A DNA stretch of 64,000 nt. Source: Patescibacteria group bacterium (GTDB taxonomy: Bacteria; Patescibacteriota; Patescibacteriia; UBA11705; JABHMO01). Location: the NCBI GenBank assembly GCA_018818405.1, contig JAHIRY010000047.1, positions 2,053-66,052 on the forward strand, given 5' to 3'. Of the stretch, positions 5,236 through 60,960 are shown one piece after another; the first letter of the stretch is position 1, and every line of letters starts with the position of its first letter. The position numbers were made by a program, and so were the translations under genes. The notes beneath the pieces are model-generated. The model saw only the letters and a list, made by a program, of their open reading frames with translations. It was not told where the DNA came from and searched no databases.

Positions 5236-7491
5236 ATGAATAATATAAGAAATTTTTGCATTATCGCGCACATTGACCACGGAAAGTCAACTTTGGCTGA
5301 CCGTTTTTTGGAATTCACCGAAACAGTGGAAAAGCGGCACATGAAAGCTCAGCTTCTTGATTCCATGGATTTGGAGCGTGAAAGAGGGATTACAATCAAA
5401 CTACAGCCTGTCCAAATGAACTATATGACTCGGATTTGTGAGAATAAGAATGAGTCAAAATTACTTTATGAGGATCTTACTTATAAAATAAGGGGAGCCG
5501 CTTTTAATGTTAAGAAAAATTTGGGGTTGGGGCATAAAGAAAAAATTTATCAGAAAGCGCTGGAAGCGGAATTCAAAAAACTCGGTTTGCTGTATGAAAG
5601 TGAAAAATCGATTGAAGTTTTTTACGATGACAAAAAAATCGGAGTTTACCGCCCCGATTTTATCATTGAAAACAAAGTAATCGTCGAACTGAAATCATTA
5701 CCCTTTATCGGCGAAAGAGAAAATTCACAATGCCAATCCTACTTAAAAGGTTCTGAATACAAAGTTCTAGTATTAATCAATTTTTCAAAAACAGACGTCG
5801 AATTTAAACGATTCATTTACGATAGAGCGAGAAAGTCCGCGCAGTCCGCGAAGTCCGCATATATACTTAATTTGATAGATACGCCGGGTCATGTCGATTT
5901 CTCTTACGAGGTTTCCCGCTCGCTCGCGGCAGTCGAAGGCGCAATTCTCTTGGTTGACGCGGCGCAGGGCGTTCAGGCTCAGACTTTGGCGAATTTGTAT
6001 TTGGCGATTGAGCAGGGATTGGAAATAATTCCGGTGATAAATAAAATCGATCTGCCGGCAGCTGATGTGGAAAAAGTTTCAACCGAATTGATAAATCTTA
6101 TCGGCTGTAAAAAAGAAGAAATACTTTTGTGTTCAGCGAAAACAGGGCAGGGAATTGAGGCGATTTTGGACGCGGTGGTGGAGAAAGTTCCGCCGCCGAA
6201 AATCGAACCCGGCAAACCTTTGCGCGCTTTGATATTCGATTCTTTTTTCGATGAATACAAAGGAGTGGTCGCTTATGTCAGAATCGTTGACGGAGAGATT
6301 AAAAAAGGCGATAAAATATTGATTGTCGGAACTGACACTGAAGCGGAAGTTTTGGATGTGGGAATTTTAAAGCCGTCATTGGTCTCAACTCCGAAATTGG
6401 AAACCGGTGAAATCGGATTTGTTGTCAGCGGTTTGAAGGAAATTGAAAATTGCCGGGTGGGCGACACCATTACTTCGTACAGAGAACGGGGAAATATCGA
6501 GGTTTTACCCGGTTACAAACAAGCGACGCCAATGGTTTATGCGGGAATTTTTTGCAAAGAAGGCAATGAGTACGGCGATTTGAGAGAAGCGATCGGGAAA
6601 TTGAAATTAAATGACGCGTCCTTGGTTTATGAACCGGAAAGTTCACCTGTTTTGGGTTTTGGTTTTCGTTGCGGATTTTTGGGAATGTTGCATTTGGAAA
6701 TTTTTCAAGAACGATTACGCCGGGAATTTGATTTGGATTTGGTTGTGACTGTTCCGAGCGTTGCCTACAAGGTTGTGTTGAAGCCGGGAAGTTCCATAGA
6801 ACCGCAGATCAGGAAGGAGCAGATTGTGGCTGATGACGCGTACATTATAAAAAATCCCAATGAATTTCCGGACATGAGTCAGATCGATCACATGGAAGAG
6901 CCGATCATGAATGTTGATATTGTCAGTCCAAAGGATTATCTGGGAAATATCATGAGTTTGGTGCAGGAAAATCGCGGTGAATATTTGAACACGGAATTTA
7001 TCGATCCCACGCGCGTGATTTTGCATTACCGCATGCCGCTCGCAATGTTGATCGTTGATTTTTATGACAAATTGAAAACAGTCAGCTCGGGTTATGCGTC
7101 GATGAATTATGATTTTTTCGGTTATGCGCGCGCTGAATTGATAAAAATGGATATTCTGGTTGCCGATGAAATGGTGGAAGCTTTTTCCACGATTATTTAC
7201 AAGGACATGGCATTTCAAATCGGAAAGAAAATAGTGCAAAATTTAAAAGATACAATTCCAAAACAACAGTTCGTGGTAAAATTGCAGGCAGCCATCGGCG
7301 GAAAAATAATCGCGGCGGAAAGAATTTCCGCTTTGCGCAAAGATGTGACAGCGAAATTATACGGCGGAGATTGGACGAGACGGCAGAAATTATTGGAAAA
7401 GCAGAAAAAGGGAAAAAAGAAAATGATGGCGTTCGGAAAAGGCAAAGTGAATATTCCGCCGGAAGCGTTTCTTGCGGTGATTAAACGGTGA
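5236..7491 (+). CDS. lepA: Elongation factor 4 (LepA) carrying a 144-aa in-frame insertion
   Basis: IIAHIDHGKSTL P-loop, DTPGHVDF, and LepA-specific C-terminal domains. At 751 aa it is about 150 aa longer than canonical LepA of roughly 600 aa. Confidence 0.9.
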   Translation: MNNIRNFCIIAHIDHGKSTLADRFLEFTETVEKRHMKAQLLDSMDLERERGITIKLQPVQMNYMTRICENKNESKLLYEDLTYKIRGAAFNVKKNLGLGHKEKIYQKALEAEFKKLGLLYESEKSIEVFYDDKKIGVYRPDFIIENKVIVELKSLPFIGERENSQCQSYLKGSEYKVLVLINFSKTDVEFKRFIYDRARKSAQSAKSAYILNLIDTPGHVDFSYEVSRSLAAVEGAILLVDAAQGVQAQTLANLYLAIEQGLEIIPVINKIDLPAADVEKVSTELINLIGCKKEEILLCSAKTGQGIEAILDAVVEKVPPPKIEPGKPLRALIFDSFFDEYKGVVAYVRIVDGEIKKGDKILIVGTDTEAEVLDVGILKPSLVSTPKLETGEIGFVVSGLKEIENCRVGDTITSYRERGNIEVLPGYKQATPMVYAGIFCKEGNEYGDLREAIGKLKLNDASLVYEPESSPVLGFGFRCGFLGMLHLEIFQERLRREFDLDLVVTVPSVAYKVVLKPGSSIEPQIRKEQIVADDAYIIKNPNEFPDMSQIDHMEEPIMNVDIVSPKDYLGNIMSLVQENRGEYLNTEFIDPTRVILHYRMPLAMLIVDFYDKLKTVSSGYASMNYDFFGYARAELIKMDILVADEMVEAFSTIIYKDMAFQIGKKIVQNLKDTIPKQQFVVKLQAAIGGKIIAAERISALRKDVTAKLYGGDWTRRQKLLEKQKKGKKKMMAFGKGKVNIPPEAFLAVIKR
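5428..5859 (+). other. In-frame GxxExxY / PD-(D/E)xK nuclease-like domain inserted between the G2 and G3 motifs of LepA
   Basis: Contains GHKEKIY, the GxxExxY motif, and RPDFIIENKVIVELK, a D..ExK motif. It replaces the short beta-hairpin loop present in E. coli LepA (KASDGET). The 3' junction holds the direct repeats agtccgcgc/agtccgcga/agtccgca. Confidence 0.7.
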
Positions 7492-25580: not shown

Positions 25581-25770
25581 AAGGACGGTTTTTTTTATTG
25601 TGATCAAAAGTTATTGAATTCAAACCATATTAGTTTCCAATCAAAGTATATTCAGAGTTAGTCATTCCCGGATCCCCGGGTTTCCAGGTTCCCGGGTCGC
25701 CGGGTTTCCGCTTCCCTGGTCCCCTGATTCAGAGCCGGCCTACTTAACAAATCAGTAAAAATGTTTTATA

Positions 25771-26922
25771 TTGAATCCAATATTTATGAATAAAAAACCA
25801 GGAAAAATAAAAGTCGCTGTCGCAGTTTCCGGCGGAGTTGATTCTTCGGTTGCTTTGGCGTTGTTGAAAAAACAAGGTTTTGAGGTTTTCGGCGTGTTCA
25901 TGCATTTCTGGAGCGAGAATATCAGCGGAAAAGTTCGCGACAATATTTGTTGTTCTCTCGAAGCGCAGGAAGACGCGAGAAAAGTTTGCCGAAAGCTGGG
26001 CGTTCCATTTTATACCATGAATATGACATTGCCGTTCAAGAAAAAGGTGGTTGATGATTTTCTCGATCAATATGAAAATTGCCGGACGCCGAATCCTTGC
26101 GTTCTGTGCAACAAGCATATAAAGTTCGGCGAGTTTATCAAAAGAGCAACGGAGATGGGAGCGGATTTTGTGGCGACCGGACATTATGCGCGAAATCCTA
26201 AATCAGAAATTCTAAATTCTAAACAAATTCAAAATCCTAAATCCCAAAATACAAATATTATCAATAAGCTTTTAATTTCAAAGGATATAGCGAAAGACCA
26301 AACTTATTTTTTGCATCAATTGAATAAAAAACAATTATCAAAAATTATTTTTCCGATTGGGAAATATACAAAGGCGGAAGTTCGCGCGCTGGCAAAGAAA
26401 TTCAATCTGCCGACCGCGTCGAAAAAAGAATCGCAGGAAGTTTGTTTTGTTCCGGGCGGAAATTTGCAGAAATTTTTTGAGAAATATTTAAAATTGAAAT
26501 CAGGAGATATTGTCGACATTGAAACGAAAAAAGTTTTGGGAAAACACAATGGTTTGGCGCGATACACCATAGGACAGAGAAAAGGAATCGGACTTCACGG
26601 CGGACCGTGGTATGTCGTCGGATTGGATAAAGAAGAAAATATTTTGCGAGTTTCTAGAAATGAGAGCGATTTTCTCAGCAATGAATTGCAAGTCAAAAAT
26701 GTGAATTGGATTTCCGGCGTTTGTCCGGAATTTCCGTTGAAAGCGAAATGCAAAGTCCGTTATTGTTCAGAAGATGCGAATTCAATAATCGAAACAACGA
26801 ATGAGAAAAATATTTTTCGCGTAAAATTCAAAAAACCGGTTCGCGCCGCAACACCCGGACAGTATTGTGTTTTTTGGAAAGGCAAGGAATGTTTGGGCGG
26901 CGGCGTAATTCAACAAAGTTGA
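25771..26922 (+). CDS. mnmA: tRNA 2-thiouridine(34) synthase MnmA with a low-complexity in-frame insertion
   Basis: The PP-loop AVAVSGGVDSSV, the catalytic Cys residues and the conserved C-terminal domain. The extra segment NPKSEILNSKQIQNPKSQNTN is encoded by aatcctaaat-type repeat DNA. Confidence 0.85.
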   Translation: MNPIFMNKKPGKIKVAVAVSGGVDSSVALALLKKQGFEVFGVFMHFWSENISGKVRDNICCSLEAQEDARKVCRKLGVPFYTMNMTLPFKKKVVDDFLDQYENCRTPNPCVLCNKHIKFGEFIKRATEMGADFVATGHYARNPKSEILNSKQIQNPKSQNTNIINKLLISKDIAKDQTYFLHQLNKKQLSKIIFPIGKYTKAEVRALAKKFNLPTASKKESQEVCFVPGGNLQKFFEKYLKLKSGDIVDIETKKVLGKHNGLARYTIGQRKGIGLHGGPWYVVGLDKEENILRVSRNESDFLSNELQVKNVNWISGVCPEFPLKAKCKVRYCSEDANSIIETTNEKNIFRVKFKKPVRAATPGQYCVFWKGKECLGGGVIQQS

Positions 26923-49197: not shown

Positions 49198-49198
49198 T

Positions 49199-50184
49199 TT
49201 TTTCAGGGAGCAATTAGCAAGGAGCAGGGAGCACTACTCATGTATCATATAACATGTAGCATGTAACAAAAATCGATATTGAAATCCTGAATTTCGTAGA
49301 GGCGCAAAATCTTGCGTCTGCGATTCAATTAAAATGAAATTCTAACAAAAAACCGTCCGGAGAATTATCCGGACGGGGAGCGAGCGATGCGGTTTAGCCA
49401 AGGCTGACCGCATTTTTTGCGATATTGCGGGCAACTGAATCGAGTACGAGACTAACGACTAAATGTTTGCAAGTTTCAGCGAGTTGACGCAAAAAAGCGG
49501 CTCTTTCATGATTGCGCGAATCTCTCAGTACTTCGAGCGCGTCAATCAAATTGGCGCATTGCCTCGGATAATCGACAGAACTTTGAGAAATTTCATTGAG
49601 ACGCAAAATCGTTTCTTCCACCAGATTTTGCGCTTCCTGATATTTGTCGGCCATAATGTCCCTCCGTTGTTCGTCCCTTCTAATAATAAATTTAACATCA
49701 GCCGGCATATTTTGTCAATTTATAATTTGCTTGTGATTTAGTATTTCGAATTTATAATTTGTAATTTATGATTTCGAGCTTGTTTAGAATTTCGAATTTA
49801 GGATTTAGTATTTGGAATTTGTCCCGCAGCGTGCGGGATCCCGCTCACAGCGGCGATTTAGTATTTCGGATTTAGGATTTCACCAGTGTTCCCTGATTAG
49901 TGCTCCTTGTTCCTTGCCGTAGGTTGCTGCCACCGCAGCGTGCGGGGTTCCGCTCACAGCGGGACGAATTCGCCACCGCAGCGTGCGGGGTCCCGTCTCA
50001 CAGCGGGACGAATCATCACTAATTCTCCACCGCAGCGTGCGGGATCCCGCCCGCGGCGGGACGAATTATAATTTCGCAATTTAAGATTCATATTTTGTTA
50101 CATGCGAAGTGCTCCCTGCTCCCTGCTGATTGCTCCCTGCCAAGTGCTCCTTGCTCCCTGTTCAAAAAATCTGGGGATAAACGT
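49199..50184. repeat. Mosaic intergenic repeat region R1 upstream of the mraZ promoter
   Basis: The modules, in both orientations, are a GC hairpin unit (ccaccgcagcgtgcgggg.cccgctcacagcggg, tandem x4 at 49930..50068 plus one at 49822), agggagcac/gtgctccctg units (49203-49240, 49884-49915, 50108-50160), a catgtagcatgtaaca unit (49240-49270) and AT-rich (a)aatcctaaat/tttaggatt units (49737-49880). Confidence 0.75.
49394..49654 (-). CDS. Hypothetical 86-aa helical protein embedded in repeat region R1
   Basis: SD GGAGG lies 6 nt upstream of the ATG at 49652-49654. A dedicated minus-strand terminator (ccgtccggagaattatccggacgg plus U-run) follows the stop. The track ORF extends to 49708 without an SD. 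Confidence 0.5.
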   Translation of the reverse strand: MADKYQEAQNLVEETILRLNEISQSSVDYPRQCANLIDALEVLRDSRNHERAAFLRQLAETCKHLVVSLVLDSVARNIAKNAVSLG

Positions 50185-57215: not shown

Positions 57216-57545
57216 AGATTTGGCATGTAGCACACTTCCCCTAGATGCGACTCGGGACAGGCTTTCAGGCTCAGTGTGACAATTAATAAATCCTAAATCC
57301 TAAATACGAAATACTAAAAAAAATTACAAATTCGAAATTTCAAATACCAAGTAAATTATAATTCGTCTGCCCCGCACGCTGCGGCGGTGGCAATTTAAAT
57401 CAAGTAAATCAGTAGCAGATCAGTATATCACATGGAATGTCTCATGTGATAAAAGTTCAAATGGCTAATAAGCTAAGAAGCTACAAGCTAATAAGTCAAT
57501 CTTGTAAAACCGTGCAAAACTGATATACTGAATTTCATTAAACCA
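57216..57545. repeat. Mosaic intergenic repeat region R2 between ftsI and murF
   Basis: Contains the catgtagcac unit, aatcctaaatcctaaatacgaaatactaaa, accaagtaaattataattcgtctgccccgcacgctgcggcggtgg (the inverted GC unit), gctaagaagctacaagctaataag, a palindrome atcacatg..catgtgat and a murF promoter candidate. Confidence 0.7.
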
Positions 57546-58847
57546 TTGAAAAAATTACATAATATGAAAAAAATATTGGAAAGAATATTGGCGTCATGCG
57601 CCGAATCGATTTTGAAAAAATATCATCCGCGAGTGATCGGCATTACCGGCAGTATTGGCAAGACTTCGGCCAAGGAGGCGATTTATGCTGTGTTGAACAC
57701 CAAATTTAATGTTCGGGAAAATAAAAAAAATTATAACAATGAAATCGGCGTTCCGCTGACCGTTATCGACGCTGAGTCAGGCGGGAATTCAATTCTTGGT
57801 TGGATGAAAGTTTTTCGAAAAGCGATCAAATTGATTTACGGAGAAAATAAAAATTATCCGGAAATATTGATCATGGAAATGGGAGCGGATAAGCCCGGAG
57901 ATATTGAATATTTGGTGAACATTGCGCCTTGCAATATCGGAGTGGTGACGACTATCGGGCCGACGCATTTGCAAGCTTTCGGAACAGTGGAAAAAGTTGC
58001 CAGAGAAAAACAAAAAATTGTGAGCCATCTGAACAAAGACGGCGTCGCGATTTTGAATTATGATGATTTGTTGGTTCGGAAAATGGCGGAAAAGACAAAA
58101 GCGAAAGTTGTTTTTTTCGGTTATTCGGAAAAAGCGGATATTCATTCGGTTGATCTGGCGAATCATGGCGTGACAATGGATTTGCAAGGAATAAAATTTA
58201 AAATTTCCGACGGCCGAAGTTCTGTGCCGGTTTTTCTGCCCGGAGTGGTCGGCATTCATCAGATTAATTCCGCGCTCATTGCCGCGGCTGTGGGAAATTC
58301 CCTCGGAATGAATTTGATCGATGTTTCCATCGGATTGAAAAATTATCGGGCGCCAAAAGGAAGAATGAATTTGATCGAAGGAATTGAAAACAGTTTGATG
58401 ATTGATGATACTTACAATTCATCGCCAAAAGCGGCGGCAGCCGCGTTGGAAACCTTGGCAAAGTTGAATATTTCCGATGCTCGGAGAAAAGTGGCGATTT
58501 TGGGCGATATGCTGGAACTGGGAACTTTTTCAGAACAAGCGCATTATGAATTGGGAAAATCTGTGGCGGATTTGAAAATAGATTTTTTGATTTGCGCGGG
58601 AAATATGAGGCACAAAATAGTTCAGGGCGCAATGGAAAACGGTTTTTCCGGCGACAATATTGTTGAATTCCGCGATTCGGTCGAGGCTGGACAAACCGTG
58701 CGAAATTTGATAAAGTCCAATGAATTGATTTTGGTAAAAGGCTCGCAAGGCGCAAGAATGGAACTCATTGTAAAAGCGTTGATGCGCAATCCGGAAGACG
58801 CGAAAAAATTGTTGGTGAGGCAGACGGGAGAGTGGATTAAGAGTTAG
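57546..58847 (+). CDS. murF: UDP-MurNAc-tripeptide--D-Ala-D-Ala ligase MurF
   Basis: Mur ligase P-loop GITGSIGKTS plus the middle and C-terminal Mur ligase domains, 433 aa. Confidence 0.85.
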   Translation: MKKLHNMKKILERILASCAESILKKYHPRVIGITGSIGKTSAKEAIYAVLNTKFNVRENKKNYNNEIGVPLTVIDAESGGNSILGWMKVFRKAIKLIYGENKNYPEILIMEMGADKPGDIEYLVNIAPCNIGVVTTIGPTHLQAFGTVEKVAREKQKIVSHLNKDGVAILNYDDLLVRKMAEKTKAKVVFFGYSEKADIHSVDLANHGVTMDLQGIKFKISDGRSSVPVFLPGVVGIHQINSALIAAAVGNSLGMNLIDVSIGLKNYRAPKGRMNLIEGIENSLMIDDTYNSSPKAAAAALETLAKLNISDARRKVAILGDMLELGTFSEQAHYELGKSVADLKIDFLICAGNMRHKIVQGAMENGFSGDNIVEFRDSVEAGQTVRNLIKSNELILVKGSQGARMELIVKALMRNPEDAKKLLVRQTGEWIKS

Positions 58848-59069
58848 TTGCCACCACCGCAGCGTGCGGGGCAGGCGAATTATCTTTTGTGATTTGTGAT
58901 TTCGAGCTTGTCCCGCAGCGTGCGGGATCCCGCTCACAGCGGTGATTTAGGCTTTAGTATTTAGAATTTAGGATTTTAATTGTGCTACATGTTATATGTT
59001 ATATGAGCAGTGTTCCATGATTAGTGTTCCCTGATTAGTGCTCCCTGACAAGTGCTCCCTGAAAATCAC
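58848..59069. repeat. Mosaic intergenic repeat region R3 between murF and tRNA-Glu
   Basis: Two GC hairpin units (58852-58875 and 58907-58940), the AT-rich tttaggattt units, gtgctacatgttatatg and gtgctccctg x3 units. Confidence 0.7.
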
Positions 59070-59144
59070 GGCCTCATCGTCTAGTGGTTAGGACGCATGG
59101 TTCTCATCCATGTAACCGGGGTTCGATTCCCCGTGGGGCTACCA
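59070..59144 (+). tRNA. tRNA-Glu (anticodon CUC)
   Basis: A manual cloverleaf fits. Acceptor GGCCUCA/UGGGGCU (two G-U pairs), D-arm GUCU-AGUGGUUA-GGAC, anticodon loop UUCUCAU, T-arm CGGGG-UUCGAUU-CCCCG, and an encoded CCA. It is followed by a hairpin plus T-run terminator at 59148..59176. Confidence 0.8.
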
Positions 59145-59272
59145 AAAAATCATCATCGCGAGATGGTGATTTTTTGTTATTTAGGAAATTAATTTGAGTT
59201 ATCCACATTTAAATTTGCCGTTCGGTTTTTGTTTGGTATAATGAAGTTAGAACCGAACAGAAAGCGAACGTT

Positions 59273-59311
59273 AGTGAGTAAGAGATTGAGAGAATAAGAG
59301 ATTTAGAGATA
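59273..59311. repeat. Left arm of the inverted repeat flanking the four-helix-bundle gene, a degenerate (aagagatt)n array
   Basis: gagtaagagattgagagaataagagatttagagataaag. Its complement, (aatctctt)n, occurs at 59783..59825. Coordinates are approximate. Confidence 0.6.
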
Positions 59312-59429
59312 AAGTCAGAAATTCAATTTCGTAGATTCTAAGTCTCTCAGTTTCTGTCATTTTATCTAACTATTCTAAAGAATGAAGCATTCATATAAAT
59401 AATTAAGAATTTGGCAAAAAGGATATGAG

Positions 59430-59783
59430 TTGTTGATGAAAATTTATGAGGCAACTCGAAATTTTCCACAGGAAGAACGATTTGGATTGATATCAGATAT
59501 TAGACGATCGGCGAATTCCATTATCGCAAATATTGCAGAAAGTCATGGACGTTATTACTATCTCGATAAAATTCGTGTTTTATACATTGCTCGAGGTGAA
59601 ATAGAAGAAGTTAGTAGCCACCTCGCGGTTGCAACCGGTTTGCAGTATCTATCCATAGCGGAATCAACGGATTTTTTACAAGAATATGAAGGTTTACAAC
59701 TCGGATTAAATGATTTCATTGCGAGTTTATTACATCAATCAACTGCAATAAAAAAAAGTTCTAAAAAAAATAATTCCCAATAA
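59430..59783 (+). CDS. Four-helix-bundle protein (23S rRNA intervening-sequence / S23 / bAvd family)
   Basis: Family signature ...ATRNFPQEERFGLISDIRRSANSIIANIAESHGR...YIARGEIEEV. 117 aa, coordinates taken from the ORF track. Confidence 0.75.
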   Translation: MLMKIYEATRNFPQEERFGLISDIRRSANSIIANIAESHGRYYYLDKIRVLYIARGEIEEVSSHLAVATGLQYLSIAESTDFLQEYEGLQLGLNDFIASLLHQSTAIKKSSKKNNSQ

Positions 59784-59825
59784 CTCAATCTTCCAATCTC
59801 TCAATCTCTTAATCTCTTAATTATT
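59783..59825. repeat. Right arm of the inverted repeat flanking the four-helix-bundle gene
   Basis: ctcaatcttccaatctctcaatctcttaatctcttaatt, the reverse complement of the (aagagatt)n left arm. Confidence 0.6.
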
Positions 59826-59840
59826 CTAATATAATCACTT

Positions 59841-60446: not shown

Positions 60447-60960
60447 TAAAATAAAAAAAGTAATTCATAAAAAGGCGCGGGAAAGAATTGTTTGTGACAA
60501 AAGCATGGACAAATAATCCTTTCCTCAGCCAAAAAAATTAATCTTATGTCAAAAAGAAAAGTTCGATCAATAGTAAGAAAATTTACCGGATTTTGGGAGG
60601 ATTTGACGATTAATGTGTGAGTTGTTGCAAGGAACAATCAGCAAGGAGCAGGGAACACTAATCATGTAGCATGTAACAATTCGCAGGGAGCAAGGAGCAC
60701 TAATCAGGGAACCCCGCCCTTCGCGAAGAGCGGGGGAACACAATTTAATTCCTAAATCCGAAATTCCAAACACCAAGTAAATTATAATTCGCCTGCCCCG
60801 CACGCTGCGGTGGCAGCAACCTACGGCAAGGAACAAGGAACACTAATAGGGGATCACAATATCAAATAGTTCGAAAGGTTTATAAATAGCTAAGAAGCTA
60901 TTTATCCCGCCCGCGGCGGGAATGAGCTACAAGCTAAAAAGCTAATTCGTAACAATTATA
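60447..60960. repeat. Mosaic intergenic repeat region R4 between lexA and the dinB-coupled ORF
   Basis: 60625-60690 is about 85 percent identical to 49203-49270. 60768-60815 is the same segment as 57336-57385. 60797-60847 is the reverse complement of 49897-49945. Also present are cccgcccgcggcggg and gagctacaagctaaaaagcta units. Confidence 0.75.

Follow-up and report, generated by a model that had tools for sequence, protein, structure and literature searches.

A four-helix-bundle gene between complementary octamer arrays upstream of lexA in a Patescibacteria genome, and the recurrence of its layout across phyla

A stretch of 64,000 nucleotides (hereafter the window), which belongs to a contig of 125.8 kb in a metagenome-assembled Patescibacteria (Candidate Phyla Radiation, CPR) genome, contains between tRNA-Glu and lexA an open reading frame (ORF) of the four-helix-bundle (4HB) family that is flanked by two complementary arrays of degenerate 8-mers. 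The ORF and its arrays are here referred to as the cassette. The same layout, with different repeat units, recurs around homologous genes in several phyla, and the position between a promoter and lexA is shared by three genomes. The cassette is probably a resident and decaying member of a widespread class, in which a 4HB ORF is looped by a stem of 7-8-mer arrays inside the transcription unit of a host gene. By analogy, these data support an architecture like that of the ORF-bearing intervening sequences (IVSs) of 23S rRNA, situated here in the leader of lexA.

Four-helix-bundle ORF and its complementary arms

The ORF at 59430-59783 (plus strand), which includes RRSANSIIANIAESHGR, matched PF05635 ("23S rRNA-intervening sequence protein"; E 3.9e-25, 88.6 bits, cut-off 33.8) and the NCBIfam model TIGR02436 ("four helix bundle protein"; 86.2 bits, cut-off 24). 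A preliminary description, prepared from the letters of the window, had assigned the ORF to this family by its motif, and both models bear this out. The RxxxSxxxNxxE core can be read directly as R-SAN-S-IIA-N-IA-E; the full family motif is GxxRxxxSxxxNxxE (PMC3936711). No rRNA was detected in the window by Rfam, and the cassette is thus not inserted in rRNA; no known RNA was detected in the cassette by Rfam at gathering or E-value thresholds. The features of the region are as follows.

59070-59144: tRNA-Glu(ctc), the gene upstream of the cassette
59143-59176, plus strand: predicted intrinsic terminator after tRNA-Glu, a 15-pair stem followed by a T run
59215-59242, plus strand: sigma-70-type promoter-like site (TTGCCG, 16-nt spacer, TATAAT, TG extended -10; 10/12 matches)
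59255-59269, plus strand: conserved, operator-like GAAC-N7-GAAC direct repeat just 3' of the -10 element
59273-59315, plus strand: left arm, a degenerate array of AAGAGATT-like 8-mers, about 4.5 units
59322-59381, plus strand: inner segment, which repeats the right arm and its 3' flank directly in diverged form (59322-59384 as aligned)
59382-59402, plus strand: putative ancestral start of the 4HB ORF (MKHSYK), then an in-frame TAA at 59400-59402, a nonsense codon where the orthologue has GAA
59430-59783, plus strand: remaining 4HB ORF (PF05635/TIGR02436), 117 aa from TTG 59430 or 115 aa from ATG 59436
59783-59821, plus strand: right arm, (AATCTCTT)-like 8-mers complementary to the left arm, beginning at the stop codon
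59841-60446, plus strand: lexA (LexA_DNA_bind and Peptidase_S24), syntenic, its ATG 19 nt past the right arm

Arrays of period 8 were identified by Tandem Repeats Finder both upstream (59279-59314, 4.5 copies) and downstream (59775-59821, 3.4-5.2 copies) of the ORF. Together these arms form an inverted repeat (59279-59315 / 59783-59819) of 37 nt that is 78% complementary, with a core of 26 nt (59285-59310 / 59796-59821) that is 88% complementary. Local alignment of the upstream flank with the reverse complement of the downstream flank gave a score of 37, compared with 15.9 +/- 2.6 for shuffled sequences, of which 0/1000 reached 37 (z 8.2), and the direct-repeat control for the same flanks scored 19. 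The exact AAGAGATTNAGAGA occurs in the 64 kb at the two arms only, and up to two mismatches gave 10 matches versus 2.5 expected. Nowhere in the window does the left arm find a better Watson-Crick match than the right arm (37 versus at most 28). Both the minimum free energy (MFE) fold and the centroid fold of 59260-59840 close the cassette by the arm stem; the complementary flanking arrays and the long stem enclosing the ORF, which the preliminary description had proposed, are therefore upheld, the latter as a prediction. The inner segment and the right arm with its flank share the ending TAAnTATTCTAA..ATG, and this inner segment is missing from the orthologous locus L003, a Falkowbacteria (UBA11705) genome.

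Judging from the sequence, the annotated 4HB ORF is N-terminally short, with ATG 59382 as its ancestral start. The in-frame 5' extension reads ATG(59382) MKHSYK-TAA-LRIWQKGYELLMKIY and is colinear with full-length homologues starting MxxSFxxLxIWQKGYELL, so that a premature stop (TAA) falls at codon 7 of the gene. The TAA base is identical in the independent assembly L002. The remaining ORF does not cover all four helices: positions 1-13 of the PF05635 profile lie upstream of TAA 59400, and W11 and G14, which are invariant in the subfamily, fall 5' of this codon and outside the remaining ORF. The sequence of the 4HB orthologue was similar to PDB 2gsc (E 1.1e-11), and this structure, the XCC0516 homologue, assembles as a homopentamer whose subunits are four-helix bundles (PMC4990558).

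Both tRNA-Glu and lexA were confirmed as the neighbours named in the preliminary description. The tRNA unit is set apart from that of the cassette and lexA because a predicted terminator (59143-59176) is followed by a putative promoter (59215-59242), the best promoter-like site of the region, and from these signals we infer that the cassette is part of the lexA transcription unit and not of the tRNA-Glu unit. The lexA gene of the window would then be expressed from a leader that carries a 550-nt structured insert and a decaying gene. The GAAC-N7-GAAC repeat sits within a hairpin (59219-59237 / 59252-59270). Its form is presumably that of the alphaproteobacterial SOS box, and its position, its conservation and this likeness make it a candidate LexA-binding site. 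A window-wide scan for the repeat as an SOS box found 4 matches versus 1.5 expected, with none upstream of dinB, so that it is the conservation that argues for an operator.

Three related genomes displayed three states at the lexA site, namely an intact ORF (L003), an ORF with a nonsense codon (the window), and an ORF-less hairpin (L057). The gene order in L003 is murF, tRNA-Glu, ..., 4HB, lexA, orf82, ..., dinB, with protein identities to the window of 72% (LexA), 62% (4HB), and 55% (MurF), and its 4HB ORF has GAA where the window has TAA. In L057, LexA is 82% identical to that of the window and is preceded by the same promoter and GAAC-N7-GAAC repeats. About 125 nt separate this promoter from lexA, and no ORF lies in that interval; a 90-nt hairpin without an ORF stands before the lexA ATG (-24.3 kcal/mol, z -4.6, 0/200 shuffles). 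The promoter site was kept in both syntenic loci, as indicated by alignment. Because promoter, operator-like repeats, both arms, and lexA start are common to the aligned lexA loci, the cassette appears to be an old resident of the lexA leader. A LexA metagenome scan for empty sites returned 4 loci, one of which (L057) was informative and held the ORF-less hairpin, with no clean empty site; no recognisable target-site duplication was found at the window cassette.

Recurrence of the layout and its placement inside operons

A genome scan yielded 54 loci, with proteins 45-64% identical, from CPR lineages, Pirellulales, Phycisphaerae, Gamma- and Deltaproteobacteria, and Elusimicrobia. The flanks of the 4HB gene contained an inverted repeat at z > 4 in about 40 of 52 loci, and direct-repeat scores stayed at background. 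An inverted-repeat score of at least 26 was observed for 72% of 50 homologous genes, whereas the rate among 203 other genes from these loci was 3.9% (Mann-Whitney p = 9e-22), and the strongest matches in this control set turned out to be PF05635 paralogues or transposases. Across the homologous loci the arms are 7-8-mer arrays of 3-5 units, with a period of 8 (22 upstream and 19 downstream arms) or 7 (5 upstream and 5 downstream), which was equal on both arms in 14/15 loci; no shuffle attained the threshold. The right arm begins at the stop codon in approximately 20 loci, and the left arm ends 0-45 nt 5' of the start. The median score with the own partner arm was 32, compared with 17 for foreign partners, and in 55 of 63 related loci the MFE fold closed the cassette through 12 or more long-range pairs. 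No relatives were found in a scan of viral contigs.

The preliminary description had proposed looking for the cassette elsewhere in the genome, and a second 4HB copy was found on the same contig with different arms, between the gene for the NiFe-hydrogenase large subunit and hypA (L001 17273-17845, equal to window coordinates 67113-67685, beyond the window). It is 32% identical to the first copy and lies between (CATATAA/CATGTAG)n on one side and the complementary array on the other (33 nt, 88%); arrays of the (CATGTAG)n type are also present in four intergenic gaps within the window. Further repeat units around 4HB homologues, each with its complement, include GCTAATAG, CTCGATA, and AAGATTT. 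Array units in cultured cyanobacteria are GGGGTGT, TAGGGAG, ACAGGTG, and GAGGAGATAA, with arms of (GGGGTGT)n / (ACACCCT)n in Nostoc punctiforme and (TAGGGAG)n / (CTCCCTA)n, perfect over 34 nt, in Nostoc edaphicum. Inverted arrays likewise accompany the 4HB genes of Anabaena sp. 90 and Picosynechococcus PCC 7003. In Xanthomonas, Stenotrophomonas, and Luteimonas (L067, L069, L071-L073), a gene of the XCC0516 type, the protein of which has been crystallised, is located at accB-[4HB]-accC, where (GGGAATC)n and the complementary array serve as arms and fill the spacers exactly.

Functionally linked genes of the same orientation enclose the cassettes tightly, and the spacers are taken up by the arrays. 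Both neighbours were co-oriented with the 4HB gene in 33/43 cases versus 88/158 for other genes (p = 0.014). Host sites include rpsL-rpsG, smpB-tmRNA (transfer-messenger RNA), accB-accC, and GAPDH-rpe; cas6-cas4 and cas10-cmr3; membrane-fusion protein-AcrB, MacB-MacB, and ABC permease-ATPase; as well as histidine kinase-response regulator, DnaB-YbaB, and TsaC-KsgA. Genes for 23S_rRNA_IVP have been reported inside cas loci (PMC3936711). The 4HB genes in cas operons, accBC, str, and tRNA operons look like promiscuous operon residents and not like functional partners. Cassettes occupy orthologous sites at lexA (two genomes), at accB-accC (Xanthomonadaceae), and between ACAD and HAD (Pirellulales).

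Seven CPR genomes share the order tRNA-Thr-[4HB]-rpmG-...-tRNA-Trp, and one of them holds two cassettes with different units. The slot between rpmG and tRNA-Trp varies in content, with a 4HB cassette or a GIY-YIG ORF in some cases and inverted arrays lacking an ORF or a short spacer in others, and therefore cassettes have apparently been both gained and lost there. The ORF-less arrays of the tRNA-Thr..tRNA-Trp stretch are inverted (AAATCCG)n/(GATTTAG)n. As an observation in its own right, the tRNA-Thr..rpmG..tRNA-Trp region of CPR is a hotspot for small inserts (L015 3949-5047; L007, L021, L031, L032, L050).

Candidate explanations for the cassette

In the favoured explanation, the lexA promoter would transcribe the cassette jointly with lexA, and the 4HB ORF would be translated off the nascent RNA. 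Once the right arm had been synthesized, the two arms would pair into a duplex of approximately 26-37 bp, which RNase III may cut by analogy with the rRNA IVSs of Coxiella and Leptospira. The Leptospira rRNA IVS is cut by RNase III. The insert would thereby ride on the host promoter and would be tolerated within an essential transcript because the arm duplex is presumably cut, and the ORF would be dispensable and would erode as the stem stays. No rnc signature was found in the approximately 70 kb of genome seen, which is uninformative at that coverage.

Several observations weigh against this explanation. Arm mismatches of the G-U type (57) and of the A-C type (55) were equally frequent and gave no RNA-strand signature, and the sense and antisense duplex energies were equal (-35.9 versus -36.2 kcal/mol). 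Within orthologous groups, own arms scored 34.2 versus 32.6 for species-swapped arms (p = 0.13), indicating no fine-scale co-evolution. Because own arms had no advantage over swapped arms, the complementarity could be a property of the DNA, or the unit sequence could itself be constrained, and the null results of these three tests keep the DNA-level and the protein-binding-site explanations alive. When G-U pairs are included, other sites of the window reach about -35 kcal/mol with the left arm, compared with -37 for its true partner, and the left arm also pairs locally with 59337-59369 (-28.6 kcal/mol), forming a competing hairpin. In addition, the 4HB gene of the window may be non-functional. 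Exceptions to the layout were also found. A Pseudanabaena plasmid (L063 1390-1960) carries its 4HB gene between cas6 and cas4 with long direct heptamer arrays, (GCTAAAA)x13 and (GCCAAAA)x10, and Nostoc PCC 7120 gamma lacks complementary arrays.

A possible, if doubtful, alternative is a mobile element at the DNA level. The small cassette would then move or recombine, with the arrays as its terminal inverted repeats, serving either as multiple binding sites or as ends that form cruciforms; array pairs dispersed without an ORF would be non-autonomous derivatives in the manner of REP/REPIN relative to RAYT, and the 4HB protein would be a nucleic-acid-binding accessory factor. Such an element would account for complementarity that is Watson-Crick-symmetric without a G-U excess, for unit motifs that are conserved within lineages and do not covary freely, and for one subfamily (45-64% identity) that is spread over distant phyla and many different operon junctions. 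The variable occupation of the rpmG-tRNA-Trp slot and the direct duplication of the right arm and its flank on either side of the window ORF point the same way, as do the (CATGTAG)n arms of the second copy, which are seen again in four intergenic gaps within the window. Furthermore, the GGGAATC arrays that make up the arms in Xanthomonas are also dispersed through that genome, where 70 of them occur as convergent pairs (PMC4692102). On the other hand, no near-identical copies were found, the two copies on the contig being 32% identical and the AAGAGATT arrays unique in the 64 kb, and the cassettes are long resident at orthologous sites. Neither a target-site duplication, a clean empty site, nor an associated transposase was found, and the enrichment of co-oriented neighbours is not predicted by a mobile element. 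To our knowledge, the 4HB protein has no catalytic activity.

Cis-regulatory arrays are an unlikely explanation. The repeats would be sites for a pentameric 4HB protein or for a host factor, with approximately one unit per subunit, serving autoregulation or the control of the downstream gene (lexA), and the complementarity would be secondary. TRAP, which binds triplet repeats, provides the model for such an arrangement. The number of units (3-5), the homopentameric state of the XCC0516 homologue, the conservation of unit motifs within protein subfamilies, and the arms abutting start and stop codons are all consistent with binding sites. However, a sequence-specific single-strand binder would see only one of two complementary arms, and the ORF-less hairpin has outlasted the loss of the gene in L057. 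Avd proteins, moreover, are reported to bind nucleic acid without sequence specificity.

It is very improbable that the ORF is an orphan Avd of a diversity-generating retroelement (DGR) with its reverse transcriptase (RT) and repeats elsewhere. The similarity to bAvd was weak (PF22296, E 2.7e-5, under the cut-off), and the equivalog model NF033474 gave 21.5 bits versus a cut-off of 80. No RVT domain was found among called genes with Pfam hits from approximately 10 kb upstream to approximately 10 kb downstream, nor in 10 further ORFs, and no direct repeats resembling a template/variable repeat (TR/VR) pair were found, the only direct repeats being intergenic mosaics. The homologues reside in housekeeping operons, and no relatives were found in viral contigs. 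The preliminary description, which had seen neither RT nor TR/VR pair nearby and considered a DGR unlikely, was borne out, and the DGR reading of the cassette was rejected on the failed NF033474 match and the lack of an RT or TR/VR in the stretch searched.

The last alternative, chance or generic purine-rich low-complexity tracts unrelated to the gene, is scarcely credible and was refuted by the shuffles and the cross-locus comparison: 7-8-mer arrays are many in this genome and with G-U pairs other sites pair with the left arm nearly as well, whereas z was 8.2 with 0/1000 shuffles, the motif occurs at the two arms only, and the rates across loci are 72% versus 3.9%. The preliminary description had itself named partnerless generic tracts as a refuting scenario, of which the abundance of 7-8-mer arrays in the genome held and the absence of partners did not, since the arrays come with partners.

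A wider reading is put forward tentatively. The 4HB cassettes may be the gene-bearing members of families of 7-8-nt arrays, such as the short tandemly repeated repetitive (STRR) sequences, GGGAATC, and those of this CPR genome, with each paralogue having its own unit, ORF-less convergent pairs being derivatives, and rRNA IVSs being the rRNA-resident special case of transcript-resident elements. If true, this would explain the abundant genes annotated as "four helix bundle", "S23 ribosomal", or "23S IVS protein" outside rRNA, the origin of the rRNA intervening sequences, and the heptamer and octamer arrays (STRR, GGGAATC, and similar). The question is testable in cultured hosts, including Xanthomonas, with its accB-XCC0516-accC locus, a crystal structure, and published RNA-seq, as well as Nostoc, Anabaena, and Picosynechococcus.

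Other repeats in the window and comparison with known systems

The window also contains a mosaic family of intergenic repeats (49198-50160, 57285-57500, 58847-59062, and 60622-60940), composed of REP-like GC hairpins (CCCGCAGCGTGCGGG, CCCGCTCACAGCGGG) and 7-8-mer arrays (GATTTAG, AGTGCTCCCTGATT, CATGTAG, GCTAAKAA). Direct copies are 72-84 nt long and 79-84% identical, and copies in opposite orientation bracket whole genes. One such pair encloses tRNA-Glu, the 4HB gene, and lexA (58847-58888 versus 60779-60820, 42 nt at 90%), and others enclose murF (57353-57393 versus 58848-58888, 41 nt at 90%; also 57288-57318 versus 58946-58976). At 49204-50139, an inverted repeat of 44 nt (89%; GGGAGCA and CATGTAG arrays) surrounds approximately 850 nt with several REP-like hairpins and a minus-strand ORF of 104 aa (49394-49708) without a Pfam hit. 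An array of (AAATCCT)n, approximately 8 units at 26193-26255, lies in frame within mnmA, and its unit type is that of the intergenic CTAAATC/GATTTAG arrays. The 761-nt gap upstream of mnmA holds a GC-rich (CCGGGTTT)n array (25665-25724). A near-perfect palindrome of 70 nt (15606-15640 / 15641-15675, 97%), with a related arm at 15515-15543, is located in a 435-nt intergenic gap. Two paralogous ORFs at 10226-12499 (354 and 372 aa) had no Pfam hit, and the second, of 372 aa, contains a 117-nt tandem repeat in 3.8 copies (11912-12361).

The preliminary description had also pointed to a GxxExxY domain in lepA. This nuclease-like PDDEXK_3 domain was recovered (E 1.3e-31) as an in-frame insert at residues 80-193, within the GTPase domain of lepA (5236-7491). 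It is not a cassette of the same kind because no flanking inverted repeats were found.

The bAvd proteins of DGRs share the four-helix-bundle fold family with the window ORF, with weak similarity by hidden Markov model. In contrast, the 4HB of the window fails the equivalog cut-off, has no RT or TR/VR found with it, is bracketed by inverted arrays, and has homologues in housekeeping operons.

Two further comparisons concern intergenic repeats. REP/REPIN with RAYT resemble the 4HB cassette in that a single gene is inversely flanked by repeats of a kind that also lies scattered over the genome. Correia- and ERIC-type repeats are intergenic and are cut by RNases in mRNA, and like the cassette they are stem-forming inserts co-transcribed with host genes. 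Unlike RAYT, 4HB is not a transposase and has no recent identical copies. Regarding dispersed copies in the approximately 70 kb seen, the AAGAGATT arrays are unique in the window, and arrays of other types recur, those forming the arms of the second copy among them.

The cyanobacterial STRR, the Xanthomonas GGGAATC, and the Beggiatoa TAACTGA arrays are repeats of the same kind, with a period of 7-8, an intergenic position, and often convergent pairs. The arrays that flank 4HB genes in Xanthomonas and Nostoc are these heptamer types themselves, although most heptamer arrays do not adjoin a 4HB gene. The papers on Xanthomonas and Nostoc (PMC4692102; 70-75 convergent pairs) and on Beggiatoaceae (PMC4679880) treat heptamer arrays as G-quadruplex or regulatory elements, and neither mentions the 4HB/S23 family. 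In the literature searched, the coverage of which was incomplete so that absence is no proof of novelty, no account of inverted arrays around non-rRNA 4HB genes was found. The layout described here links the puzzling 7-8-base repeat arrays of bacteria to the 4HB gene family.

The closest likeness is to the ORF-bearing IVSs of 23S rRNA. The Coxiella IVS has a bordering stem of 28 bp that is cut by RNase III, and 3-4 tandem heptamers (GACAGAT), strain-variable in copy number, directly before the S23p start; the 5' cleavage site is at the first repeat, and the ORF is eroding (PMC4990558). The IVS-like reading of the window cassette, already made in the preliminary description, is supported by the tandem heptamers that the Coxiella IVS carries in the 5' arm of the stem cut by RNase III, and also by the recurrence of the layout in most homologues across phyla. 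The host transcript differs: in place of rRNA it is the lexA leader in the window, and at other sites a tRNA operon, the spacer between smpB and tmRNA, or another operon spacer. Compared with the rRNA IVSs, arms of the window type are longer and have arrays on both sides, and their cleavage by RNase III is presumed. The window cassette and the IVSs of Coxiella and Leptospira are alike in protein family, sense orientation, and an ORF looped by terminal inverted repeats, which in the window, as in IVSs, give a stem of at least about 20 bp around the ORF. As in the Coxiella type, tandem 7-8-mers stand directly before the start codon, in the window as 4.5 copies of an 8-mer (59279-59314). In both the IVSs and the window family, the ORF erodes, the stem stays, and ORF-less versions exist.

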